Assembly: GCA_964016885.1 (NCBI GenBank)
Contig: OZ024747.1
Span: forward strand, 81,406,001 to 81,470,000
DNA from: Eledone cirrhosa
Lineage: Eukaryota
Length of the DNA stretch: 64,000 nt
Direction of reading: 5' to 3'
The notes under the pieces are model-generated. The model did not search any database, was not told the origin of the DNA, and saw only the letters and a list, made by a program, of their open reading frames with translations. The translations under genes were made by a program, and so were the position numbers. Positions within the stretch are counted from its first letter, which is position 1; the number at the start of each line of letters is the position of its first letter. Shown piece after piece: positions 1 to 48,019 of this stretch.

Positions 1-141
1 AAGAAAAAAAAAAGATTATATATATATATATATATATAGAGAAAATTGAGGTTGGTAATGGCACATGGAATATATAAGAGACAGAATACTTTTTTGTGAA
101 AAAACATAATTTTATAAGGTAAGGAAATAATAAAGGGTATA

Positions 142-192
142 AAAAATGACCGGTTTCGATGGGTCTGCAAAAGCCATCTTTTCAAATGTTGA
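142..192 (-). ncRNA. Minimal hammerhead ribozyme motif, U3-A8 variant (3' pLTR copy)
   Basis: Minus strand reads TTGAAAA-GATGG-loop-CCATC-GAAA-CCGG-TC. Helix III is palindromic (ACCGGT) and helix I is weak. Confidence 0.6.
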
Positions 193-579
193 TTAATATT
201 AAGAAAAATTAATAATACGAAGAGTTAAAATTTGAGACTTGAAAATTCAAGTATAAAATTCATTGTGGGATTTCATAGCAGTTTTCATCTAGGTAGCAAC
301 AACAGGTTGACTGCTGTGTCCCTTTCTGGTAGTGAATGAGAAGTTATTTGGGGTGTGGGTTATTTCAAATATATATATATATATATACATACAGACACAT
401 ATATTTTTTCCATAATATAAGAAGTTGGGGCAGTGAAATTAAAATAATTCTGTGTGCGCATATATATATAGATATACGTGTGTGCACGTGCAGGGTTTAA
501 ACCTGATTCTACAGAATTGGTCTCTGGTCTTTAATAGTAGTGATTCCGTGCGTATGTGTGTTTATATTTTATGACAATT

Positions 580-2856
580 CTATTGGGGTGATAACCCGTT
601 TAGTTTTGGTTTAAATTTGTTAAGGAATAGATTTTCTTTGTTTATTCTTTGTTGTTGTGTGAACGAATCTGAGCACTTGTAGAAGGGGAAGATTTTTAAG
701 TTGGGTAGTGTCATTCCTGCGCAGTTCGCAATATGGCTGCTCAAGGGGATTTTTCTTGTGTTAGCGTCCCGGATTTGTTGGCGGTGGATGGTCATTCTTT
801 TGCGTAATGAGGTGCCCGTCTGTCCTATGTAGTTGTGTTTGCACCCACCGCAAGTTATTGCGTAAATCAAGTTCTCCGAGTTGCAGGTGAAATTGTTTTT
901 TACTGTAAATGTTTGGCCATCTTTGAATGTAAATGTTTGTCCTTCAGTGAGGTAGAGGCACGTTCCACAGTTTGTTCTACCACATTTGGTAACTGTAGGG
1001 TTGAGGATTGGTTTGGGTATATTTGGTCCAGTGAGAATGCGTTTAAGTGATTTGGGTTGTCTTTTACTTTTAAGGATCTTGTGTGTTTCAAGAATAGACT
1101 TCATTTTTACATCTTTAAGTAGGATGGGGAGGTTTTTGTGTAGGTGATCAAACATTTCGGTATTTCTGGGGTTGAAAGTGGATACATATGGCAGGGTGTT
1201 GAGTGTGGTTTTCTGTTTTGGATTGTTAAGTTGATGGGGATTTAGGTGTTTTGCCCTGTCTATTCCATTGTTGATTATTTCAAGTGGAAAGGCTCTTAAG
1301 ATAAGGGTGTCTTTTAGTTCCTTTAGTCTTTGCTCCCGTTTAGGTGGATCTGATACTATGGTACATATACGTTTGGCCAAATTGTAAGGAATGTTAAGTT
1401 TTGTATGTTTTGGGTGACTTGATGTGAAAAAGAGGTATTGCTTGGAATCTGTGGGTTTATAGAATATATCTGTATCTAATTTCCCGTCTATTACAGAGAT
1501 GAGAATATCCAAGAAGGCTAATTCCTTAGGATTGGATTCCATTGTGAATTGTATGTTATTATCTATGTTGTTTATCATGTTTTTAAATGTAGTAAGTGAG
1601 TTCATGTCTTCTTGCCATAGGATAAAGCAGTCGTCTAGATATCTTTTCCAATTGGCTTTGAGGTGTGTGTGGAAAGAGTCTCCAAATAAGAGAAGGGACT
1701 GACTGTATATTTGTTGTTCATGGAATCCCATGACTAGGTTGGCATATGTGGGTGCTACTTTCGTGCCCATTGCCGTACCTGATACTTGTCTGTATGTTGA
1801 ACCATTGAATGTGAAGTAGTTATTTTGTAGGATAAAGCGGAGTCCGTCAGTGATAAAATCTGTGTTGATGCGTGTCGGTATTTCTGATGGGTGTGTGTTA
1901 AGCCAGTATTGGACTGCTGTTATTCCATAGTTGTGAGGTATGTTTGTGTAGAGGTTTATTACGTCAAAGGAGACAAGAATTGTATTTGCACTTACTGTTT
2001 TAGGGAGGTGTTTCAGCATGTCAAGGTCATCTCGTATGTAGCTCTGTATATGTTGTAGAAAGGGTTTCAGTAGGATGTCCAGAAAGTTGCTAAGTCTGTG
2101 GGTTTCACATGTAGGGCCTGCTATAATTGGCCTGAGTTTTAGGTCTTCTGGTGGTGTTAGTTCAATGTAATTGTTGGTTGAGGTGTCACATGCATCGTTT
2201 ATGGGTTTACATTTGTGAAGTTTCGGTAAGCCGTAAAAAGAGCTTGTATTGCATTTGAAGTGGCTTATATAGTTAAACTCTTTTGTGGTTAAGCTGTTGC
2301 GGTATTTATTCAGTAAGGTCAAAAGGTTCCCCATTGTTTTGGTGTGTTTGTAGTTTTCTGTTTTTTCATAGTATGTGTTGTTTTCTAAAATGTTAAGTGC
2401 GAGGGTCCTATAGTAGTCCATATTCATAATCACAACAGTACTGCCTTTATCGGCTTCTTTGATAGTTATCTCAGGGTTGTTTCTAAGTGTGAATAATTCT
2501 TCCCATTCGTGTGTAGATAGGTTTGATTTCGTGTGTTTATTTGTAATTGTTTCATAGGGAAAGTTGGTGATGTGTTCGCAGTACGTGTCCAGTGCTTTAT
2601 TTCTTCCCTTTTGTGGGCAGAAATTGCTTTTATTTCTAACCAGTGATTCGTCTTCAGTGTTGGTGTCGTTGTGGAAGAATTCCGTTAGTCGCAGCTTTCG
2701 GCAGTATTCCATGATGTCATCCTTCATTTCGGGGAAGTTTGGTTTACGTGGTGTAGGTGTAAATTTCAGGCCCTTACTTAAAATGTTGATTTGTGTGTTG
2801 GTTAGAGGTGTCTTTGAGAGGTTGATTATTTTTGGTTTCTCCTGAGGGGGGGCCAT
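580..2856 (-). CDS. Penelope-like reverse transcriptase + GIY-YIG endonuclease (frame open from 2913; probably reached by -1 frameshift from ORF1)
   Basis: Motifs LSKGLKF, ADKG, FYGLPKLHK, LRPII, SFDVINLYTNIP, GTAMGTKVAPTYANL, RYLDD, YKPTD, SSHP. Cys linker CGRTNCGTC, then NLIYAITCGGCKHNYIGQTG..LRKRMTIH and C-terminal PKLN. Confidence 0.96.
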   Translation of the reverse strand: MAPPQEKPKIINLSKTPLTNTQINILSKGLKFTPTPRKPNFPEMKDDIMEYCRKLRLTEFFHNDTNTEDESLVRNKSNFCPQKGRNKALDTYCEHITNFPYETITNKHTKSNLSTHEWEELFTLRNNPEITIKEADKGSTVVIMNMDYYRTLALNILENNTYYEKTENYKHTKTMGNLLTLLNKYRNSLTTKEFNYISHFKCNTSSFYGLPKLHKCKPINDACDTSTNNYIELTPPEDLKLRPIIAGPTCETHRLSNFLDILLKPFLQHIQSYIRDDLDMLKHLPKTVSANTILVSFDVINLYTNIPHNYGITAVQYWLNTHPSEIPTRINTDFITDGLRFILQNNYFTFNGSTYRQVSGTAMGTKVAPTYANLVMGFHEQQIYSQSLLLFGDSFHTHLKANWKRYLDDCFILWQEDMNSLTTFKNMINNIDNNIQFTMESNPKELAFLDILISVIDGKLDTDIFYKPTDSKQYLFFTSSHPKHTKLNIPYNLAKRICTIVSDPPKREQRLKELKDTLILRAFPLEIINNGIDRAKHLNPHQLNNPKQKTTLNTLPYVSTFNPRNTEMFDHLHKNLPILLKDVKMKSILETHKILKSKRQPKSLKRILTGPNIPKPILNPTVTKCGRTNCGTCLYLTEGQTFTFKDGQTFTVKNNFTCNSENLIYAITCGGCKHNYIGQTGTSLRKRMTIHRQQIRDANTRKIPLSSHIANCAGMTLPNLKIFPFYKCSDSFTQQQRINKENLFLNKFKPKLNGLSPQ

Positions 2857-4091
2857 CGAGTATCCTGGTATTTTAGGCTTTTCCCTAAAAAAGGAATGTA
2901 GTTTTGTGTGTGATTATATTTTGTTGGTCTGTTGCGTGTGGGTCTGTAGCTTGTTGTTTCATGAGGGTGAATGTGATGGTGGGGGTGGTATGTGTTGTGG
3001 TTGTTGATGAGCAAGGGTTCTGTTGTTGGTTCATGTGGTCTGGGTGCGTTATTTCTGTGGTACAGAGTGTTGAGGCTGGGGGGTTGTCTTTTGTTGGATT
3101 GAGGGTGATGTCTGGTGTGGTTGTGGGTAAGTTCTGTTGTGATTTCAAGTGGCCTGGGTGGATTTCTTCTGAGGAATGTGGTGTGTGTGTTGTGAGTTGG
3201 ATCTATGTTATTTCGTCGTTGGTTTATGTAGGGGGCATTTCTACGGAAACCTGTGTTGTGGTGGTTGGGTGTGTTTCTTTTGGTGTAGTTGGCCGTATTT
3301 GGTTTGTATTGGTGGGGGATGTGCCTGTGGTTAGTGTGTGTTGGGTTTGGTGGTGTAAATGTGTCTGTTGTAGTTCTTGTTATGTTCAAATGCTTTATAA
3401 AGGGGTTACCTGTTTGGTGCGTCCTTTTAAAGTCTTCTTCATATTTGAGGAACCAGTTTTCGGATTTTTCCCACCGTTTAAGGGAAATAGTTTCTGCATT
3501 CTCGCAGTCCTGTTTCCACGATTTGATTAAATTTTGTAGGGTTGTTCCCTCGGCCTTTTTAGTGCATTCTTCCTCCATATTTTTATCAGTATCCTTATAC
3601 TCTTGCTCGTTTGAGGTGGCCCTTAATTTTAGGAGTTCTATTTCCATGTTTATCCTGTTGAGTGACATTTGTTCACGGAGTTTTCTTTCTGGTTCAGGTT
3701 CGTTTGTAATATGCTTTATTTGGAATTTACGTGGTAAAACTATCGGTGTTGAGTTAATCCATTTTTGGTAAATTCCAGCTTTGTTGAGGTTTTTTATCAT
3801 ATTCCAGAAAGTGAATTTTCTGGTTTTTAGATGTTTTTTCCAGAGGTGTCCCATTTGGTTTTTGATATGGAGCAATGTCGTTTGTTCTGTGTTGGTATTC
3901 ATAAGTTTTTCGATGGAGTTGCATACGTTTTGAACGTTTAAATAAATTTGGTTGTCAGTCGGTGTGGTGGTTTGGGGTATATCCTGTTTTTTTGTCAGAA
4001 TGGTGAGTTTTCCATTTATCTCTTTTAGGATTTTCAGGATTTCCTCATTGATATTGGAGTTTGAAGTGGTGTTGTCTTGTTCCAGTGCCAT
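2826..4091 (-). CDS. PLE ORF1, 421 aa: helical/coiled-coil-like N-terminal part and His/Asn/Thr/Pro/Arg-rich low-complexity C-terminus
   Basis: Uninterrupted ORF starting just downstream of the 5' pLTR and overlapping ORF2. It shares the A/C-rich strand bias of ORF2. I recognise no catalytic motif. Confidence 0.85.
   Translation of the reverse strand: MALEQDNTTSNSNINEEILKILKEINGKLTILTKKQDIPQTTTPTDNQIYLNVQNVCNSIEKLMNTNTEQTTLLHIKNQMGHLWKKHLKTRKFTFWNMIKNLNKAGIYQKWINSTPIVLPRKFQIKHITNEPEPERKLREQMSLNRINMEIELLKLRATSNEQEYKDTDKNMEEECTKKAEGTTLQNLIKSWKQDCENAETISLKRWEKSENWFLKYEEDFKRTHQTGNPFIKHLNITRTTTDTFTPPNPTHTNHRHIPHQYKPNTANYTKRNTPNHHNTGFRRNAPYINQRRNNIDPTHNTHTTFLRRNPPRPLEITTELTHNHTRHHPQSNKRQPPSLNTLYHRNNAPRPHEPTTEPLLINNHNTYHPHHHIHPHETTSYRPTRNRPTKYNHTQNYIPFLGKSLKYQDTRWPPLRRNQK
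2886..2892 (-). promoter_or_regulatory. Slippery heptamer U_UUU_UUA, candidate -1 programmed ribosomal frameshift site
   Basis: ORF1 reads CCT TTT TTA GGG. The -1 frame continues AGG GAA AAG CCT AAA ATA CCA GGA TAC TCG ATG GCC directly into ORF2. Confidence 0.8.
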
Positions 4092-4152: not shown

Positions 4153-4407
4153 TATAGAGAAAATTGAGGTTGGTAATGGCACATGGAATATATAAGAGAC
4201 AGAATACTTTTTTGTGAAAAAACATAATTTTATAAGGTAAGGAAATAATAAAGGGTATAAAAAATGACCGGTTTCGATGGGTCTGCAAAAGCCATCTTTT
4301 CAAATGTTGATTAATATTAAGAAAAATTAATAATACGAAGAGTTAAAATTTGAGACTTGAAAATTCAAGTATAAAATTCATTGTGGGATTTCATAGCAGT
4401 TTTCATC
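4153..4407 (-). repeat. 5' pseudo-LTR, direct repeat of 35-289
   Basis: Reads the same as 35-289 from tatagagaaaattgagg to gttttcatc. Confidence 0.95.
4261..4310 (-). ncRNA. Minimal hammerhead ribozyme motif, U3-A8 variant (5' pLTR copy)
   Basis: Same motif as 142-192. Confidence 0.6.
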
Positions 4408-5077
4408 GTTCACACAACAACAAAGAATAAACAAAGAAAATCTATTCCTTAACAAATTTAAACCAAAACTAAACGGGTTATCACCCCAATAGAATTGTCA
4501 TAAAATATAAACACACATACGCACGGAATCACTACTATTAAAGACCAGAGACCAATTCTGTAGAATCAGGTTTAAACCCTGCACGTGCACACACGTATAT
4601 CTATATATATATGCGCACACAGAATTATTTTAATTTCACTGCCCCAACTTCTTATATTATGGAAAAAATATATGTGTCTGTATGTATATATATATATATA
4701 TATTTGAAATAACCCACACCCCAAATAACTTCTCATTCACTACCAGAAAGGGACACAGCAGTCAACCTGTTGTTGCTACCTAGATGAAAACTGCTATGAA
4801 ATCCCACAATGAATTTTATACTTGAATTTTCAAGTCTCAAATTTTAACTCTTCGTATTATTAATTTTTCTTAATATTAATCAACATTTGAAAAGATGGTT
4901 TTTGCAGACCCATCGAAACCGGTCATTTTTTATACCCTTTATTATTTCCTTACCTTATAAAATTATGTTTTTTCACAAAAAAGTATTCTGTCTCTTATAT
5001 ATTCCATGTGCCATTACCAACCTCAATTTTCTCTATAACCTTCGTTTTGTGTAGAAAATTACACTTTTCATATATAT
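4406..5077 (+). repeat. Inverted pseudo-LTR (reverse complement of 666 to 35, extended through the 4113-4152 segment)
   Basis: Direct reverse-complement comparison. There is a 2-nt TC microhomology at the 4406-4407 junction. Confidence 0.93.
4880..4930 (+). ncRNA. Minimal hammerhead ribozyme motif, U3-A8 variant (inverted pLTR copy)
   Basis: TTGAAAA 4887-4893, helix II GATGG/CCATC, GAAA 4915-4918, predicted GUC cleavage triplet ending at 4924. Confidence 0.6.
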
Positions 5078-5189
5078 ATATATATATATATTTCTCCTTC
5101 AAATGAAATAATTCTAGTCCTATAGAAGACATTTCTATATTAAATATTGTATATATAAAAATAAAATTAAAAAAAATAAAAAACACTTA

Positions 5190-5900
5190 TTAGCAAGACA
5201 TACCCTTTTCAAAGACCCCCCCCCCCCAGTATAGATAAGAAATGTATAACCTGTAAAATAAGCCCCCATATTAACTGTAAAACTAGAAATGTAGTGTATA
5301 GCATAAGATGTACTGAAGGACAATGTAGAGACAAAAATATAGTGTACATAGGTGAGACAGCTCGTAGTGTAGGGGAACGGATAAATGAACACTGGCGAGA
5401 CCTTCAAGATAGTAAAGAATCATCTGTACTCTACGAACATGCTAAAATAGAACATAAGGGTAAATTAGAGAACATAGAAATAAAAATAGAATCTACACAC
5501 AGAAAAGACGCAATGTTTAGACAAATCACAGAGGTAATAAACATAAAAGAATTACAACCAAAATTAAATAGAAAATATGAGTGGAACAGCAACATCACAA
5601 CTTACAATTAAGGACAAAATGAAAACACACACACACATAGAACAAACAACCAACCAGTAACATGTAAATAAACAAATAAATAAACGAATATAAACACACA
5701 CAGACACCCGGATGTGGCGCATGCGCAGACTGAGCACACAACACACACACAGAAACAAAATGGCATAGGGCAGAACAAAGGAGAGGCACAAAAACAAAGA
5801 AAAGAATCCCCAGTCACTGAAGAGGTCACAGAATGTGTGACGAAAGAACTTTGACAATATATAAACAACTATCTGGTTGTGGAACCAACCAACCAACCAG
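5190..5900 (+). mobile_element. 5'-truncated second Penelope-like family: GIY-YIG C-terminus plus 3' pLTR
   Basis: Frame reads CITCKISPHINCKTRNVVYSIRC..VYIGETARSVGERINEH..EH..EVINIKELQPKLNRKYEW with a stop at 5611, followed by a UTR containing a hammerhead motif. Confidence 0.88.
5813..5855 (+). ncRNA. Minimal type-I hammerhead ribozyme motif
   Basis: GTCA-CTGAAGA-G-GTCACA-gaatg-TGTGAC-GAAA-GAAC-TT-TGAC. Helix I is GTCA/TGAC, helix II has 6 bp, helix III is minimal, and there is one extra G after the core. Confidence 0.65.
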
Positions 5901-25305: not shown

Positions 25306-26494
25306 CATCATCATCATCATCATCACCGTTTTACGTCCGTTCTTCCACGCTAGCATGGGTTAGACGGGTTGTCCTGTTGTGGGCAGTGTCTGGTCGGCTG
25401 ACCATGCCTTGCTCATACAGGAACTGATCTGGCTTGATTTCTACAGCTGGATGCCCTTCCTAACACCAACCTCATTTACAGTGAGTGCTGGGTGCTTTTT
25501 CGTGGCGCCTACACGTCCACTTTACAGTGTGGGCTGGGTGCTTTTTTGCCGTGGCACCTCCACGACCACCTTGCGGTGGGGGGGGGGGGCATATTGTTTA
25601 TATGCTTCAGCATGTACCCATGGGAGGTCGGGTACCCTGTATTACTGCGTGACGCCAGAAGTCACGGTCGTGTGTCATTGACTTTGAGAGGTGTAGTTGG
25701 GTAAGGTCGGCTTTTATCACCTCATCCGAAGTCATCTTGGGTCTCCCCACTCCGCGGTTTCCATCAACTTCTAGTGCTCTGCACCTTTTTATGCAGCTGT
25801 CATCCTTCATACGCATCACATGTCCATACCAGCGTAACCGCCTCTCCTGCACGCAGCATTTGATTCCTCTTATGCTCAGTCTCTCTCTCAATTCATTTAT
25901 GCTTTGTCGTTCACGTATATTACTGTTACACATCCATCGGAGCATGCAGGCTTCGTTTCTCTCTAATCTACGTAAGTCTTCCACCTTCAGCGCCCAGGTC
26001 TCACTACCATGCAACATCGCTGTTCGGATACACGCATCATACAGTCTGCCTTTCATTCTGAGGGAGAAGCCTTTTGCAGCTAGCAGTGGTAGTAGTTCCC
26101 TAAACTTCTTCCATCCCGTTCTTACCCTAGTTATTGTACTTTCTGAGCACCCACCTCCGTTGCTAATTCGGTCACCTAGGTAGCAGAAGCTGTCTACTGT
26201 TTCTACAGGGCCCTCCCAGAGATTGGTGGTACTTGTTTCCTGTGGCTGTTTGCTTGCTGTTTCAGCACAGCTGCTGCATGTGAATCCTACATTCTTAATT
26301 AAGCTTCCTGAGATCCCGCTACATCTCTTGTGTACCCATTGTTTGCATTTGGGGCAAAGAATGGAGTTCCTACCTACACCTTTCCTACATACTGAGCAAG
26401 GCCATTTCCCTGAGGGGATCTGGGTTCTGTTTTCTCGTCTACTTATAAGGACCTTAGTCTTTGTCATGTTGACTTTGAGGCCCTTTCTCTCTAG
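25306..26494 (-). mobile_element. 5'-truncated RTE LINE with PHD finger; open C-terminal ORF, 3' UTR and (GAT)n tail
   Basis: LERKGLKVNMTKTKVL, PHD-type Cys/His pattern, VDSFCYLGD, MLHGSETW, RRLRWYGHVMRM, GRPK. Confidence 0.95.
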
Positions 26495-28044
26495 TGTGTA
26501 TGCATATATGTGTGTTTTGTATTTATTTGTGGTGTGTGTGTAAGTGTGTGTTTGCATGATGGAGGTGAGTGAAGATGTTCTTATAAATACCTAAACATTG
26601 AGATACACACTTACTTATTGTATATATGATTGACCTGAAAGTCATTTGCAGAAAATGAAATTTTTTCGCTATGTGGCTTTTATTATTTGAGAGAATATAG
26701 TGTTGTCTAAGTATTTTATTGATATGTATAGTATATTTATATTGTGCTGTTGGTGCTAGTGAAAAGAACTAGGTTATTATGTTCCTATTTCTGAATATAT
26801 TCAATTTTTTTTTGTGATGTTTACCCAGTGCAAACTTTGGAGTTTATGAAAGATTGGCCTCTTCCCAATAATTTTGGAAGGAGTTAACACATGGTGTTAC
26901 TTGAATTGATATGTTTGATGTTAGAAGTAACAACGCACAATTTTTAATACCATATTTCTAATGAGATATAACAAATATTTTTCAATTAAGTTTGTCAATG
27001 TGCAATAATTTGATGAGATTTAGTAAAATAACTACCACGTTATTAGCCTGGCATTTAGTACTCAGCTGCATAAAGATATTCCTCCATGACATTAGGATTT
27101 TTAATTTAAATACTTTAAAATGGGGTTTGTGGTAGAACTAGGGTAGTTATGGTGTAAAACGAGTTAATGTCAAAATGATGTGCAATAAAGTTGATAGAGA
27201 GAATCCTGTTGATAGATTTCTGACAGGAAACCTCCAGTTTCAGGGATGTGAGATAAGTGGTGTCTATAAATGGCTATTGTTATTGTCACATGGCAATATA
27301 TAGAACAGCTATAAGTGGAAATATAACAACCAGTTTAGAATAGACAAATACCACAAAATGGTTGCACAGAAGAAGCAGAAGCAAAAGACTAGAAAGAAAG
27401 AAAAATCCAATTGAAGCGAGTGACATAAAAGAGGGGGAAATGTTGGGAAAGAAATCTTTAATGTAGATGAAGCTGCAAATGTGAGCGATTAAACAAATTA
27501 ATTATGATAGGTAAATTGTCATGTAGAAAATAATGTAAATATTGATGGAGGATGGAATGATCTTGCTGCTTCTGTTGCTTCTAATGAACAAACAGATTGT
27601 GATAAACAGAAGCAGTGGGAACCAGTGGATATACATTGCAAGCCATATCCCTGATGAGAGTGAGTGAAGTGGGCAACAAAGACAGGGGTGGATATCCTAT
27701 ACAGGATATGACACTGGGAGAGCAGTGTTCATGTAAAATATAATGGAAATTAGATGTTGATGATGGTAGTCAGATAAAGATGGTGGGGGATAAGAAAGTG
27801 CCACAAAGAAGAATGTTGCAATGACTTGAAAAGGTAATTAATACTGAGACTGATAATAATGATGTTGAGATAATTATTACTGATAACAATGATGAAGACA
27901 ACAATGATGAAGATGGTGCTGATAGCAATTATGAAGGAAAGATAAGGATAAATGGCCATAATAATGATGTGGATTAAAGATAATAGATGATGATGATGAT
28001 GATGATACTACTGCCCCTACTACTATTGCTACTACTACTACTAA

Positions 28045-46232: not shown

Positions 46233-47524
46233 ATCATCATCATCATCATCATCAACGTTTAACGTCCGTGTTCCACGCTTGCATGGGTTTGGACGGGGGT
46301 AGTCCCACTTGAGGCAAGAGTGATTGTCTTGCTCGCATAGGACTGTCTGGCAGGTTTTCTACAGCTGGATGCCCTTCCTAACACCAACCACATTTACAGT
46401 GTGGGTCTGGGAGGTTTTTACCGTGTTGCCTACACGGCCACATTACAGCGTGGACTGTGTGTTTTTTTGTCGTGACACCTACACGATCTCATTTGTTTCG
46501 GCCTCGATGGCGCGGCACCAACATAACTTTACATAGAACGGGGTGGTGTGGATGGGGTGGGGGTGGTGGTGGTGGGACCGGGTGTATTTTGTTAGAGATG
46601 CCTACTGGCTGGAGTAGGTTTTACTATATATTTAGGTAAGGCGGGTCTTCTCTGTTACTGAGTACCGCCAAAGGTCTCGGTCCAGTGACATTGTCTTGGA
46701 GGGGTGTAAGTGTGTGATGTCGGAGTTTATCAGCTCGTCCCAGGTTTTTCTAGGTCTGCCTATTCCGTGACTACCGTCTATCTTTATTGCCCTGCACTTT
46801 GTTATACAGCTATCGACTTTCATGCGCATCACGTGTCCATACCAACGTAGCCTTCTCTCGAGTAAACAACATCTGATCCCTCTTATCTCTAATTTTTTCC
46901 TTAGTTCGTTTATGCTTTGCCGTTCACGTATATTACTGTTACACATCCAGCGGAGCATGCAAGCTTCGTTCCTCTCTAGTCTGCGTATATCCTCTGCACA
47001 CAATGCCCAGGTCTCACTGCCATGCAGCATTGATGTTCGTATGCAGGCATCGTACAACCTGCCTTTCATTTTTAGGGAGAACCCTTTAGCAGCTAATAGT
47101 GGTATAAGCTCTCTGAACTTTTTCCAACCAGTTCTGACTCTAGCTACAGTACTTTCAGAGCACCCTCCCCCACTGCTGATTTTATCGCCCAGGTAACGGA
47201 AGCTGTCCACTATTTCTATAGAACCCTCTGCGCAATTGAAAGAGCTAGTATTTTGTGGGCACTTGCTGCTACTTATTGCACCAGAGCACCGGCCACATGT
47301 AAAATCTATGTTCTTAGTTAGCTTACCTGTGATCCCACTACATCTTTTATGCACCCATACTTTGCATTTAGGACATAAAATGGAGTTTCTACCTACGCCT
47401 TTCCTACACACCGAGCACGACCATTTCCCAGAAGGGACCGCCGCCTTGTTTTCTTTCCTACAAACTAGTACTTTGGTCTTAGCCAGGTTAATTTTAAGTC
47501 CTTTTGACTCTAGGCCGTGCTTCC
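46233..47524 (-). mobile_element. 5'-truncated RTE LINE with PHD finger; open C-terminal ORF
   Basis: WKHGLESKGLKINLAKTKVL, CSVC..CPKC..HKRC..CGRC, VDSFRYLGD, RRLRWYGHVMRM, GRPRKTW. Has a (GAT)n tail and a 5' junction at (TA)n. Confidence 0.95.
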
Positions 47525-48019
47525 ATATATATATATATATATAAACAGTGATGATGATGATGATATATTTGACCTGTCCACAATCCTTTTCTCGCGGGCA
47601 CTTGGCCAAGCCGGTATGAATTTTTTTCTCTCTCTCTTTCGTCTGCGACTTCACAGAACTTATGTTTACCGAATTCGCAGACCAGACCCCTTCTTCCTCC
47701 CGTTAGACCTGTGCGAAATTCCTTCCTTGCTCACATTTCAACCAGGTTTGATGGTCTTTATTCTCTCGTTCACGATTCCAACGAATTTATATTCATAGAA
47801 ATCTGGGACTTGTTTCCTTCTTCCTCTTAAACCATTTTGTTTGTTTACCCAGCGTCCCCTTTATTTACGTGTCCCAACGACTTTTTTTTAGCCGTTGCTC
47901 GCACCAACCTGAGGTATATGGCCTTTAATGCGACGAAATGCCTACGACGGTTGGATGGCCACTGATGAGGACAAACTTTTTCATATGTAACCCATTTGCA
48001 GCGCCGCAGCTCCATTATT

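Follow-up and report, generated by a model that had tools for sequence, protein, structure and literature searches.

A candidate -1 ribosomal frameshift joining ORF1 to the reverse transcriptase in an endonuclease-bearing Penelope-like element of Eledone cirrhosa

The 64,000-nucleotide (nt) stretch of the Eledone cirrhosa genome analysed here, hereafter the window (assembly GCA_964016885.1, contig OZ024747.1, positions 81,406,001 to 81,470,000 of the forward strand), carries on its minus strand an intact, young, high-copy Penelope-like element (PLE) of the Neptune type, a retrotransposon that bears an endonuclease (EN+). Its coding region consists of two overlapping open reading frames (ORFs), namely ORF1, whose ATG has the strong flanking bases A at -3 and G at +4, and a frame for reverse transcriptase (RT), thumb, linker and GIY-YIG endonuclease (EN); the junction between the two, at which a slippery heptamer is located, is the subject of this work (Table 1). 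The initial annotation, made from the sequence alone, had placed the element among the endonuclease-containing PLEs, and RT motifs, GIY-YIG and pseudo-long terminal repeats (pseudo-LTRs) were all found. In particular, the translation contains KGLKF and ADKG, the N-terminal GxKF and DKG motifs of a telomerase-like RT, as well as a GIY-YIG at the C-terminus with the CCHH residues expected of EN+ PLEs, which was recognised by motif reading; this domain is unscored by Pfam in the window copy, and PF01541 is found on many homologues. The CX2-5CxxC linker has the long spacing to the endonuclease that is a Neptune trait and is short in Nematis, and the direct and inverted pseudo-LTRs with a hammerhead-like motif, a further trait of EN+ PLEs, are present as well. 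The hammerhead was read by eye and its U3-A8 core variant is known from PMC4209133; an Rfam search gave no hammerhead match in the element, despite the readable motif. The Neptune assignment is suggested by motifs; Neptune is paraphyletic in PMC8557442. Because the youngest copies, like four other families, have two overlapping ORFs in place of the single ORF of canonical EN+ PLEs, the window element is a variant and not a canonical member; it also differs from Athena/Terminon elements, characterized by the lack of an endonuclease and by telomeric 3' repeats, in that the endonuclease is present and the copies are dispersed in (TA)n.

On re-reading, the coordinates first given for the heptamer proved exact: T TTT TTA occupies 2892-2886, in phase with ORF1 and followed by GGG. 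It was likewise confirmed that the -1 frame is shut by the TAA at 2916-2914, opens at 2913 and continues through RT and EN to the stop codon at 582-580 (777 amino acids (aa) from stop to stop), and that ORF1 ends shortly after the site, with 19 codons remaining, a slip giving a predicted product of 402 + 768 = 1170 aa. In 85-nt overlaps of the same composition an in-phase T6R arises by chance with a probability of 0.0004 (5000 shuffles), and both the phase of the heptamer within the -1 overlap and its conservation are what is expected of a frameshift signal. The ATG at 2854-2856 overlaps ORF1 codon +11, where many relatives carry the ORF1 stop. As for the junction peptide that had been proposed, base 2874 is a minority allele (4 of the 100 matches listed), so that most copies encode E in place of K at this position.

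Table 1. Features of the Penelope-like element in the window.
Feature	Coordinates	Strand	Basis or remark
ORF1, 421 aa, helical N-terminal domain and low-complexity tail	2826..4091	-	ATG 4091, stop TAA 2828-2826
Conserved ORF1 domain, predicted all-helical, about aa 70-235	3387..3884	-	AlphaFold2 predicted local distance difference test (pLDDT) 96-99 for aa 71-230
RT-thumb-linker-GIY-YIG frame	580..2913	-	768 aa from shift site, 758 aa from ATG 2856, RVT_1 E 4.6e-7
TAA that shuts the -1 frame, located 21 nt upstream of the heptamer	2914..2916	-	
Slippery heptamer T TTT TTA, ORF1 codons F401-L402, predicted -1 shift site	2886..2892	-	X XXY YYZ phase, GGG next
ATG in RT frame, particular to the window family; GTG in family C	2854..2856	-	overlaps ORF1 codon +11 (TGG)
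C7 run, with hypervariable length (-1 to +21 nt) among older copies, origin of fused and +1 copies	2846..2852	-	
ORF1 stop, 19 codons past the heptamer	2826..2828	-	I-I codons of RT N-terminal motif read in -1 frame
C-X4-C-X2-C zinc-finger-like linker motif, Neptune-length spacing to endonuclease	958..984	-	translation; by-eye comparison with Fig. S2 rows of PMC8557442
C-terminal GIY-YIG endonuclease: LIY..C-x-x-C..YIG and two later His	583..870	-	motifs read in translation
5' pseudo-LTR	4153..4407	-	repeat comparison
3' pseudo-LTR, 100% direct repeat of 4153-4407, (TA)n at end	35..289	-	
Minimal hammerhead-like motif, U3-A8 core variant, palindromic helix III	147..185 (copy 4265-4303)	-	read by eye
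Copy of the 3' end of the element, inverted and 5'-truncated, 100% complementary, (TA)n at end	4406..5076	+	repeat comparison

About 190 copies in the 3.0-Gb genome extend across the junction. The T run was counted on 191 matches, 100 of them listed: exact T6A is kept in 94 of these 100, the others being five substitutions and one T5, with no T7. An assembly error at T6 is ruled out by this conservation and by independent short-read contigs from two organisms, which cross T6 without a gap; T7 occurs in 0 of 55 raw DNA reads. A protein search recovered copies with a single continuous frame of 1176-1181 aa (L061, L062, L063), in which the fusion arises in the C run 33 nt downstream of the heptamer. 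The C run was counted on 182 matches: among the 100 listed, 48 keep the window length, and the offset stays -1 in 62, fuses the frames in 16 and goes to +1 in 22, the C-run change increasing with copy age (rho 0.43, p 9e-6). Among the 11 youngest copies (nearest neighbour at most 0.1% away), nine keep the window offset and C7, none is fused, and the remaining two are a local duplication of one old copy. Eight copies have both ORFs intact and a C run of unchanged length, and all eight are -1; two further intact copies have +6 and +8. Fused frames were found in 30 of 144 distinct loci, a set enriched for odd copies in which they are hence over-represented; these show six different run lengths, no pair shares more than one rare allele, and no fused subfamily was found among the 144 loci. 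Since the youngest copies are unfused and the fused ones varied and without common rare alleles, the -1 form is the propagating form, and the fusions are independent later events. The initial annotation had allowed that other copies might have one continuous ORF; such copies do exist, and they are independent, older C-run expansions. A role of fused copies as the active form was rejected for want of any among the youngest and of a fused clade, with the caveat that most copies of any type leave no descendants, so that the absence of descendants does not prove inactivity.

The C7 run (2846-2852; copies L225-L324) acts as a built-in decay spot, with expansion to +21 nt and frequent replacement of the preceding G; about half of the listed copies change the C-run offset, and homopolymer assembly error may add to this. 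In addition, the 5'-truncated copies L064, L083 (=L308) and L079 border on (TA)n within the slippery run or close beside it (2887, 2892 and 2863), probably through microhomology.

The conservation of the heptamer and of the -1 offset, whose examination had been suggested at the outset, extends to five families of the E. cirrhosa genome and to seven outside loci. With distant ORF1 proteins as queries, four families (B-E) were found in the same genome besides that of the window (A), with an RT identity of 49-59%. Among 80 loci of families B-E, three have no RT match, three have no T6, and 74 contain a single T6A no more than 450 nt away from the first RT motif, which is in phase in 70 of the 74; T7 occurs in one of 98 loci (not deduplicated), a copy of family E. 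Of 124 outside loci, 68 reach the RT N-terminus; six carry T6A in phase in a -1 overlap and one carries T6G, seen by eye, and ORF1 homology was detected in five of these seven. The RT identity of these four families and seven outside loci to the window element is 34-59%. The distance from the site to the N1 motif ranges from 8 to 81 codons across lineages and is in frame each time, and in 10 of 12 lineages, among them the intact young families B, C, D and E, no ATG precedes the N1 motif, the first one falling within it or beyond it; an ATG ahead of the RT was found only in the window family and in L191. The bases around the heptamer vary, being TTTTTTA-AC in family D and TTTTTTG-T in L177.

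A different heptamer, G GGT TTY, is in phase at thirteen distant EN+ loci (28-32% identity; L155-L159, L162, L165, L169-L171, L173, L176 and L184), whose ORF1 has 360-430 aa and in most cases stops 0-2 codons past the site. About 9 nt downstream a partly covarying hairpin was found in an alignment of 10 loci; it shows compensatory changes, and its covariation was reached in 3 of 500 shuffles, the rows being related. The ORF1 of this group resembles that of the window family weakly (hidden Markov model E 1e-4 in one of 8, hhalign 0.13%). At four other loci (L123, L125, L129, L136) Neptune-like RTs follow long overlapping frames of 460-715 aa, in which neither a Pfam match nor a canonical heptamer was found.

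The heptamer can also be followed in proteins. The ORF1 domain is predicted with high confidence to be all-helical, with a disordered tail; Pfam gave no family common to 91 members, the PDB and BFVD fold search no match at E<=0.001, the ESM Atlas no usable match, and the viral contigs searched no relative. The family comprises 513 clusters at 50% identity, and the best 150 clusters are all at most 609 aa long; removal of 46 of these with a tail below 60 aa left 104 homologues. F-L is found within 40 residues of the C-terminus in 77 of the 104, against 8 of 191 control windows, and F401 is kept in 82 of 91 aligned proteins. The residue ahead of F is K, Q, E, M or W in none of the 77 (expected share 0.195; p 5e-8 if rows are independent); the residue at this place thus permits a codon ending in T in every case, and the heptamer can be recovered from the protein sequence alone. 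In 25 of the 77 the next codon cannot start with G. Many relatives are filed in bacterial symbiont bins of bivalves, which is host contamination, and the ORF1 profile gave two matches in ten contaminated prokaryote bins; one cluster contains a hypothetical protein of Pinctada imbricata.

The best reading of the junction is programmed -1 ribosomal frameshifting, with a probability of roughly 0.85, because it explains at one stroke the codon phase, the T run of exactly six, the use of an alternative heptamer and the lack of ATGs. A minority of ribosomes would probably slip back one base on U_UUU_UUA and produce the predicted ORF1-RT-EN fusion, and the majority would terminate 19 codons further on, yielding free ORF1 protein; the slip itself, and a gag-pol-like ratio of ORF1 to fusion, are what the arrangement of the frames would predict. 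The helical ORF1 protein could then have a structural role in a ribonucleoprotein. Several observations weigh against this reading. Such a site is missing from the majority of the 68 loci that reach the RT N-terminus at about 30% identity, many of which are truncated or have a long single frame, and the arrangement is consequently not universal among Neptune-like elements; 27 of the 104 ORF1 homologues have no terminal F-L (some are truncated, some have F-F or Y-F, and one continues as far as the RT motif); 52 of 77 homologues have a G directly behind the heptamer, which resembles a TAG splice acceptor; one contig (run X5, depth 4.9, a run that may be of DNA or of RNA) shows T7 at 2886; and no RNA fold downstream of the site beats shuffled sequences in families A-E, L101, L107 and L109.

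As regards the stimulator, the weak pairings CCT/AGG and CCA/TGG that had been pointed out are no better than shuffles (z +1.1 to +1.9), and in the pseudoknot prediction downstream of the heptamer the best H-type candidate was equalled or exceeded by 17 of 30 shuffles. No downstream hairpin or pseudoknot was found in the window family; the best hairpin takes in the heptamer itself and cannot serve as a stimulator. The structure 5-9 nt downstream that is typical of a frameshift signal was not found above shuffles in the window family and is present in L102 and L105 (hairpins, z -4.5 and -4.2), in L177 (a pseudoknot candidate, with 0 of 30 shuffles as good) and in the G GGT TTY group. The stimulator would vary by lineage: a hairpin or pseudoknot would act in L102, L105, L177 and the G_GGU_UUU group, and in many unstructured lineages a ribosome terminating at a stop ten codons on would block the trailing ribosome on the heptamer. 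In the window family, which has neither a clear fold nor a ten-codon stop, a low-efficiency shift on the heptamer and a weak stem is probable.

The ten-codon distance emerges from the homologues, in which ORF1 ends exactly 10 residues past the Leu in 28 of 77 and fewer than 10 in none of 77, against 3.6% and 48%, respectively, in a composition null. The trait is clustered on a quick tree (11 changes versus 23 when shuffled; 23 of 33 rows in the clade that holds the window), and the rows are hence not independent; even with 11 lineages, the absence of cases under 10 has a p of about 8e-4. The ten residues after the site cannot be aligned among homologues. A contig-end artefact is an unlikely cause of the spike: the contigs of all 10 proteins that were checked measure 1.6 kb to 1.1 Mb, and the ten-codon stops of family B and L107 are real in DNA. 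Nor is the spike an AUGA start-stop overlap in the two lineages with DNA, which show ATAA and CTAG. The window family itself misses the spacing, with a stop at 19 codons (19-20 in the subfamily, about twice the distance) because a TAA is unavoidable there, given the two I codons (I-I) of the RT motif; at codon +11 it has TGG, as do family C, L102 and the nearest protein relatives. In yeast, 10 codons between two A-sites are reported as the minimal collision gap, and human stop codons are enriched in disomes (bioRxiv 10.1101/2023.02.01.526718). It is conceivable, at somewhat less than even odds, that an ORF1 stop ten codons on was the ancestral stimulator in this EN+ PLE clade, the terminating ribosome blocking the next one on the heptamer, and that a natural, conserved, collision-driven frameshift exists in animals. 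Three points speak against a collision: termination pausing rarely leads to collisions in mammalian cells according to one study (PMC13341110), the ORF1 of L105 stops 1 codon past the site, and a constraint at the peptide level or on the RT frame could fix the position equally.

Among the other explanations of the junction, translation of RT-EN that starts at the AUG 2856 of its frame, whether on a shorter RNA or through reinitiation once ORF1 has terminated, with the heptamer as a relic, is improbable, even if it ranks ahead of the rest. It is favored by the location of this ATG, 12 codons into the -1 frame, with G at +4 and at the position of the relatives' ORF1 stop, a start-stop overlap site, and by the closest RT homologues, called with a start, perhaps other than ATG, 11-12 aa ahead of the N1 motif, both the ATG and these calls counting against frameshifting. 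However, the lack of an ATG ahead of N1 in 10 of 12 lineages, the GTG of family C at the same place, 17 upstream ATGs, a T at -3, and ATAA and CTAG rather than ATGA in the two ten-codon lineages with DNA are hard to reconcile with it, and it leaves the heptamer phase unexplained; ATG 2856 may contribute to RT expression in the window family alone. It is very unlikely that TTTTTTAG is a 3' splice acceptor, with splicing that would cut out the bulk of ORF1 and link the RT frame to an exon upstream. The acceptor-like text is perfect in families A, B, C and E and in six outside loci, family D has a CAG 7 nt further downstream, and introns do occur in PLEs (PMC3846280); yet family D, L177 and the 25 of 77 proteins with a non-G next codon have no acceptor G, the run is exactly six T without C, and ORF1 reads across it in one phase throughout. 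Moreover, the only good donors in ORF1 (3730 and 3409) are both phase 1, so that the ORF1 frame would be resumed, donors of phase 2 reach scores of 2-4 of 9, and no splice joint was seen at the site in eight sequencing runs, none of them known as RNA. Thus neither splicing nor the ATG, both raised in the initial annotation, accounts for the clade-wide pattern of sequences.

Slippage of RNA polymerase II on T6, which would add one U and give a fused mRNA, is improbable to the same degree as splicing. An extra T does yield the identical fusion, and T7 was met in the X5 contig and in the family E copy; U7 RNAs, if they were the source of the enzyme, should nevertheless return to DNA, where T7 is found in 0 of 100 listed copies of family A, 1 of 98 loci of B-E and 0 of 55 raw reads, and the fixed codon phase together with the G GGT TTY heptamer match tRNA re-pairing and not polymerase slippage. 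That the element is a single-ORF PLE disrupted by an assembly error or by an indel in a homopolymer has a next to negligible probability and is refuted by the conservation across families: the continuous copies L061, L062 and L063 and the fusing offset of 16 of 100 listed copies are in its favor, but the indel sits in the C run and not in the T run, the fused copies are varied and absent among the youngest, the -1 offset is repeated in 11 other lineages, and the short-read contigs of two organisms have a gap-free T6.

Elsewhere in the window, a 3' fragment of a different PLE endonuclease (5180-5611, plus strand; GIY-YIG E 1e-4, short CxxC linker) lies just past the (TA)n flank, and two PHD-finger ORFs on the minus strand (25607-26590 and 46632-47702; Pfam E about 1e-6) are probably remnants of ORF1 of long interspersed nuclear elements.

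With respect to known systems, PLEs are described as having one ORF with RT and EN or two ORFs without EN (Arkhipova and Yushenova 2019, PMC6431247), canonical EN+ PLEs having a single ORF (Craig et al. 2021, PMC8557442; likewise PMC11167929). The legend of Fig. 1 in PMC8557442, as in its preprint, mentions an ORF1 separable by a frameshift with a pseudoknot, with the clade unnamed, and there is perhaps one chance in three that a frameshift has already been depicted for Neptune. The window element shares with Neptune, as described there, the DKG RT, the CX2-5CxxC linker length, the GIY-YIG CCHH, the pseudo-LTRs with inverted copy and the (TA)n flanks, and differs in its separate, conserved ORF1 of 400-450 aa that overlaps in -1. 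Esterases are reported in Neptune-like PLEs of fish and molluscs (PMC5408684), and extra coding parts are therefore already known there; in the killifish Neptune element repeat.CL27 (PMC12602865) an ORF1 of no named function is also upstream of RT-EN, but it has 420 nt, is non-overlapping as called, and frameshifting is unmentioned in the text of that paper. Athena/Terminon elements likewise have a helical or coiled-coil ORF1 before the RT and a frameshift in between; in contrast, they are telomeric and lack the endonuclease, and a pseudoknot is named for them, whereas no pseudoknot was found in the window family. The literature search, which did not extend to Repbase entries and subscription papers, found the -1 arrangement of ORF1 and RT undescribed for EN+ elements. 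If the frameshift reading is true, the standard picture of EN+ PLEs would change: in place of the single ORF there would be a gag-pol-like design, with an ORF1 family that is widespread and has been overlooked. Annotations restricted to the RT would then lack the initial 400 residues, a point of importance for any in vitro reconstruction of PLE retrotransposition.

The -1 frameshift of HIV-1 gag-pol uses U_UUU_UUA, and gag-pol of retroviruses and gypsy elements shifts in the same direction. The window element resembles these in heptamer, phase and the order of a structural ORF upstream and an enzyme ORF in -1, and differs in having no stable downstream stem-loop, no match to a Gag fold or zinc knuckle, and neither protease, integrase nor LTR. 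A ribosome paused at a stop codon is known from E. coli reporters, in which it about doubles the -1 slippage of the trailing ribosome if the heptamer is placed a ribosome's length upstream, with a peak at a 9-codon spacer (Smith et al. 2019, PMC6815119); a natural eukaryotic site of collision-driven frameshifting was not turned up by the literature search. Such a system fits the ten-codon relatives and not the window family, whose stop is at 19 codons. The ten-codon spacing makes it testable whether eukaryotes use ribosome collisions instead of RNA folds as a programmed stimulator, and the window subfamily, with a Trp codon at the +11 position and a stop at 19-20 codons, is a natural variant for such a test. 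The E. coli reporters are engineered and bacterial, whereas the arrangement described here, if true, would be natural and conserved in a clade of animal retroelements.

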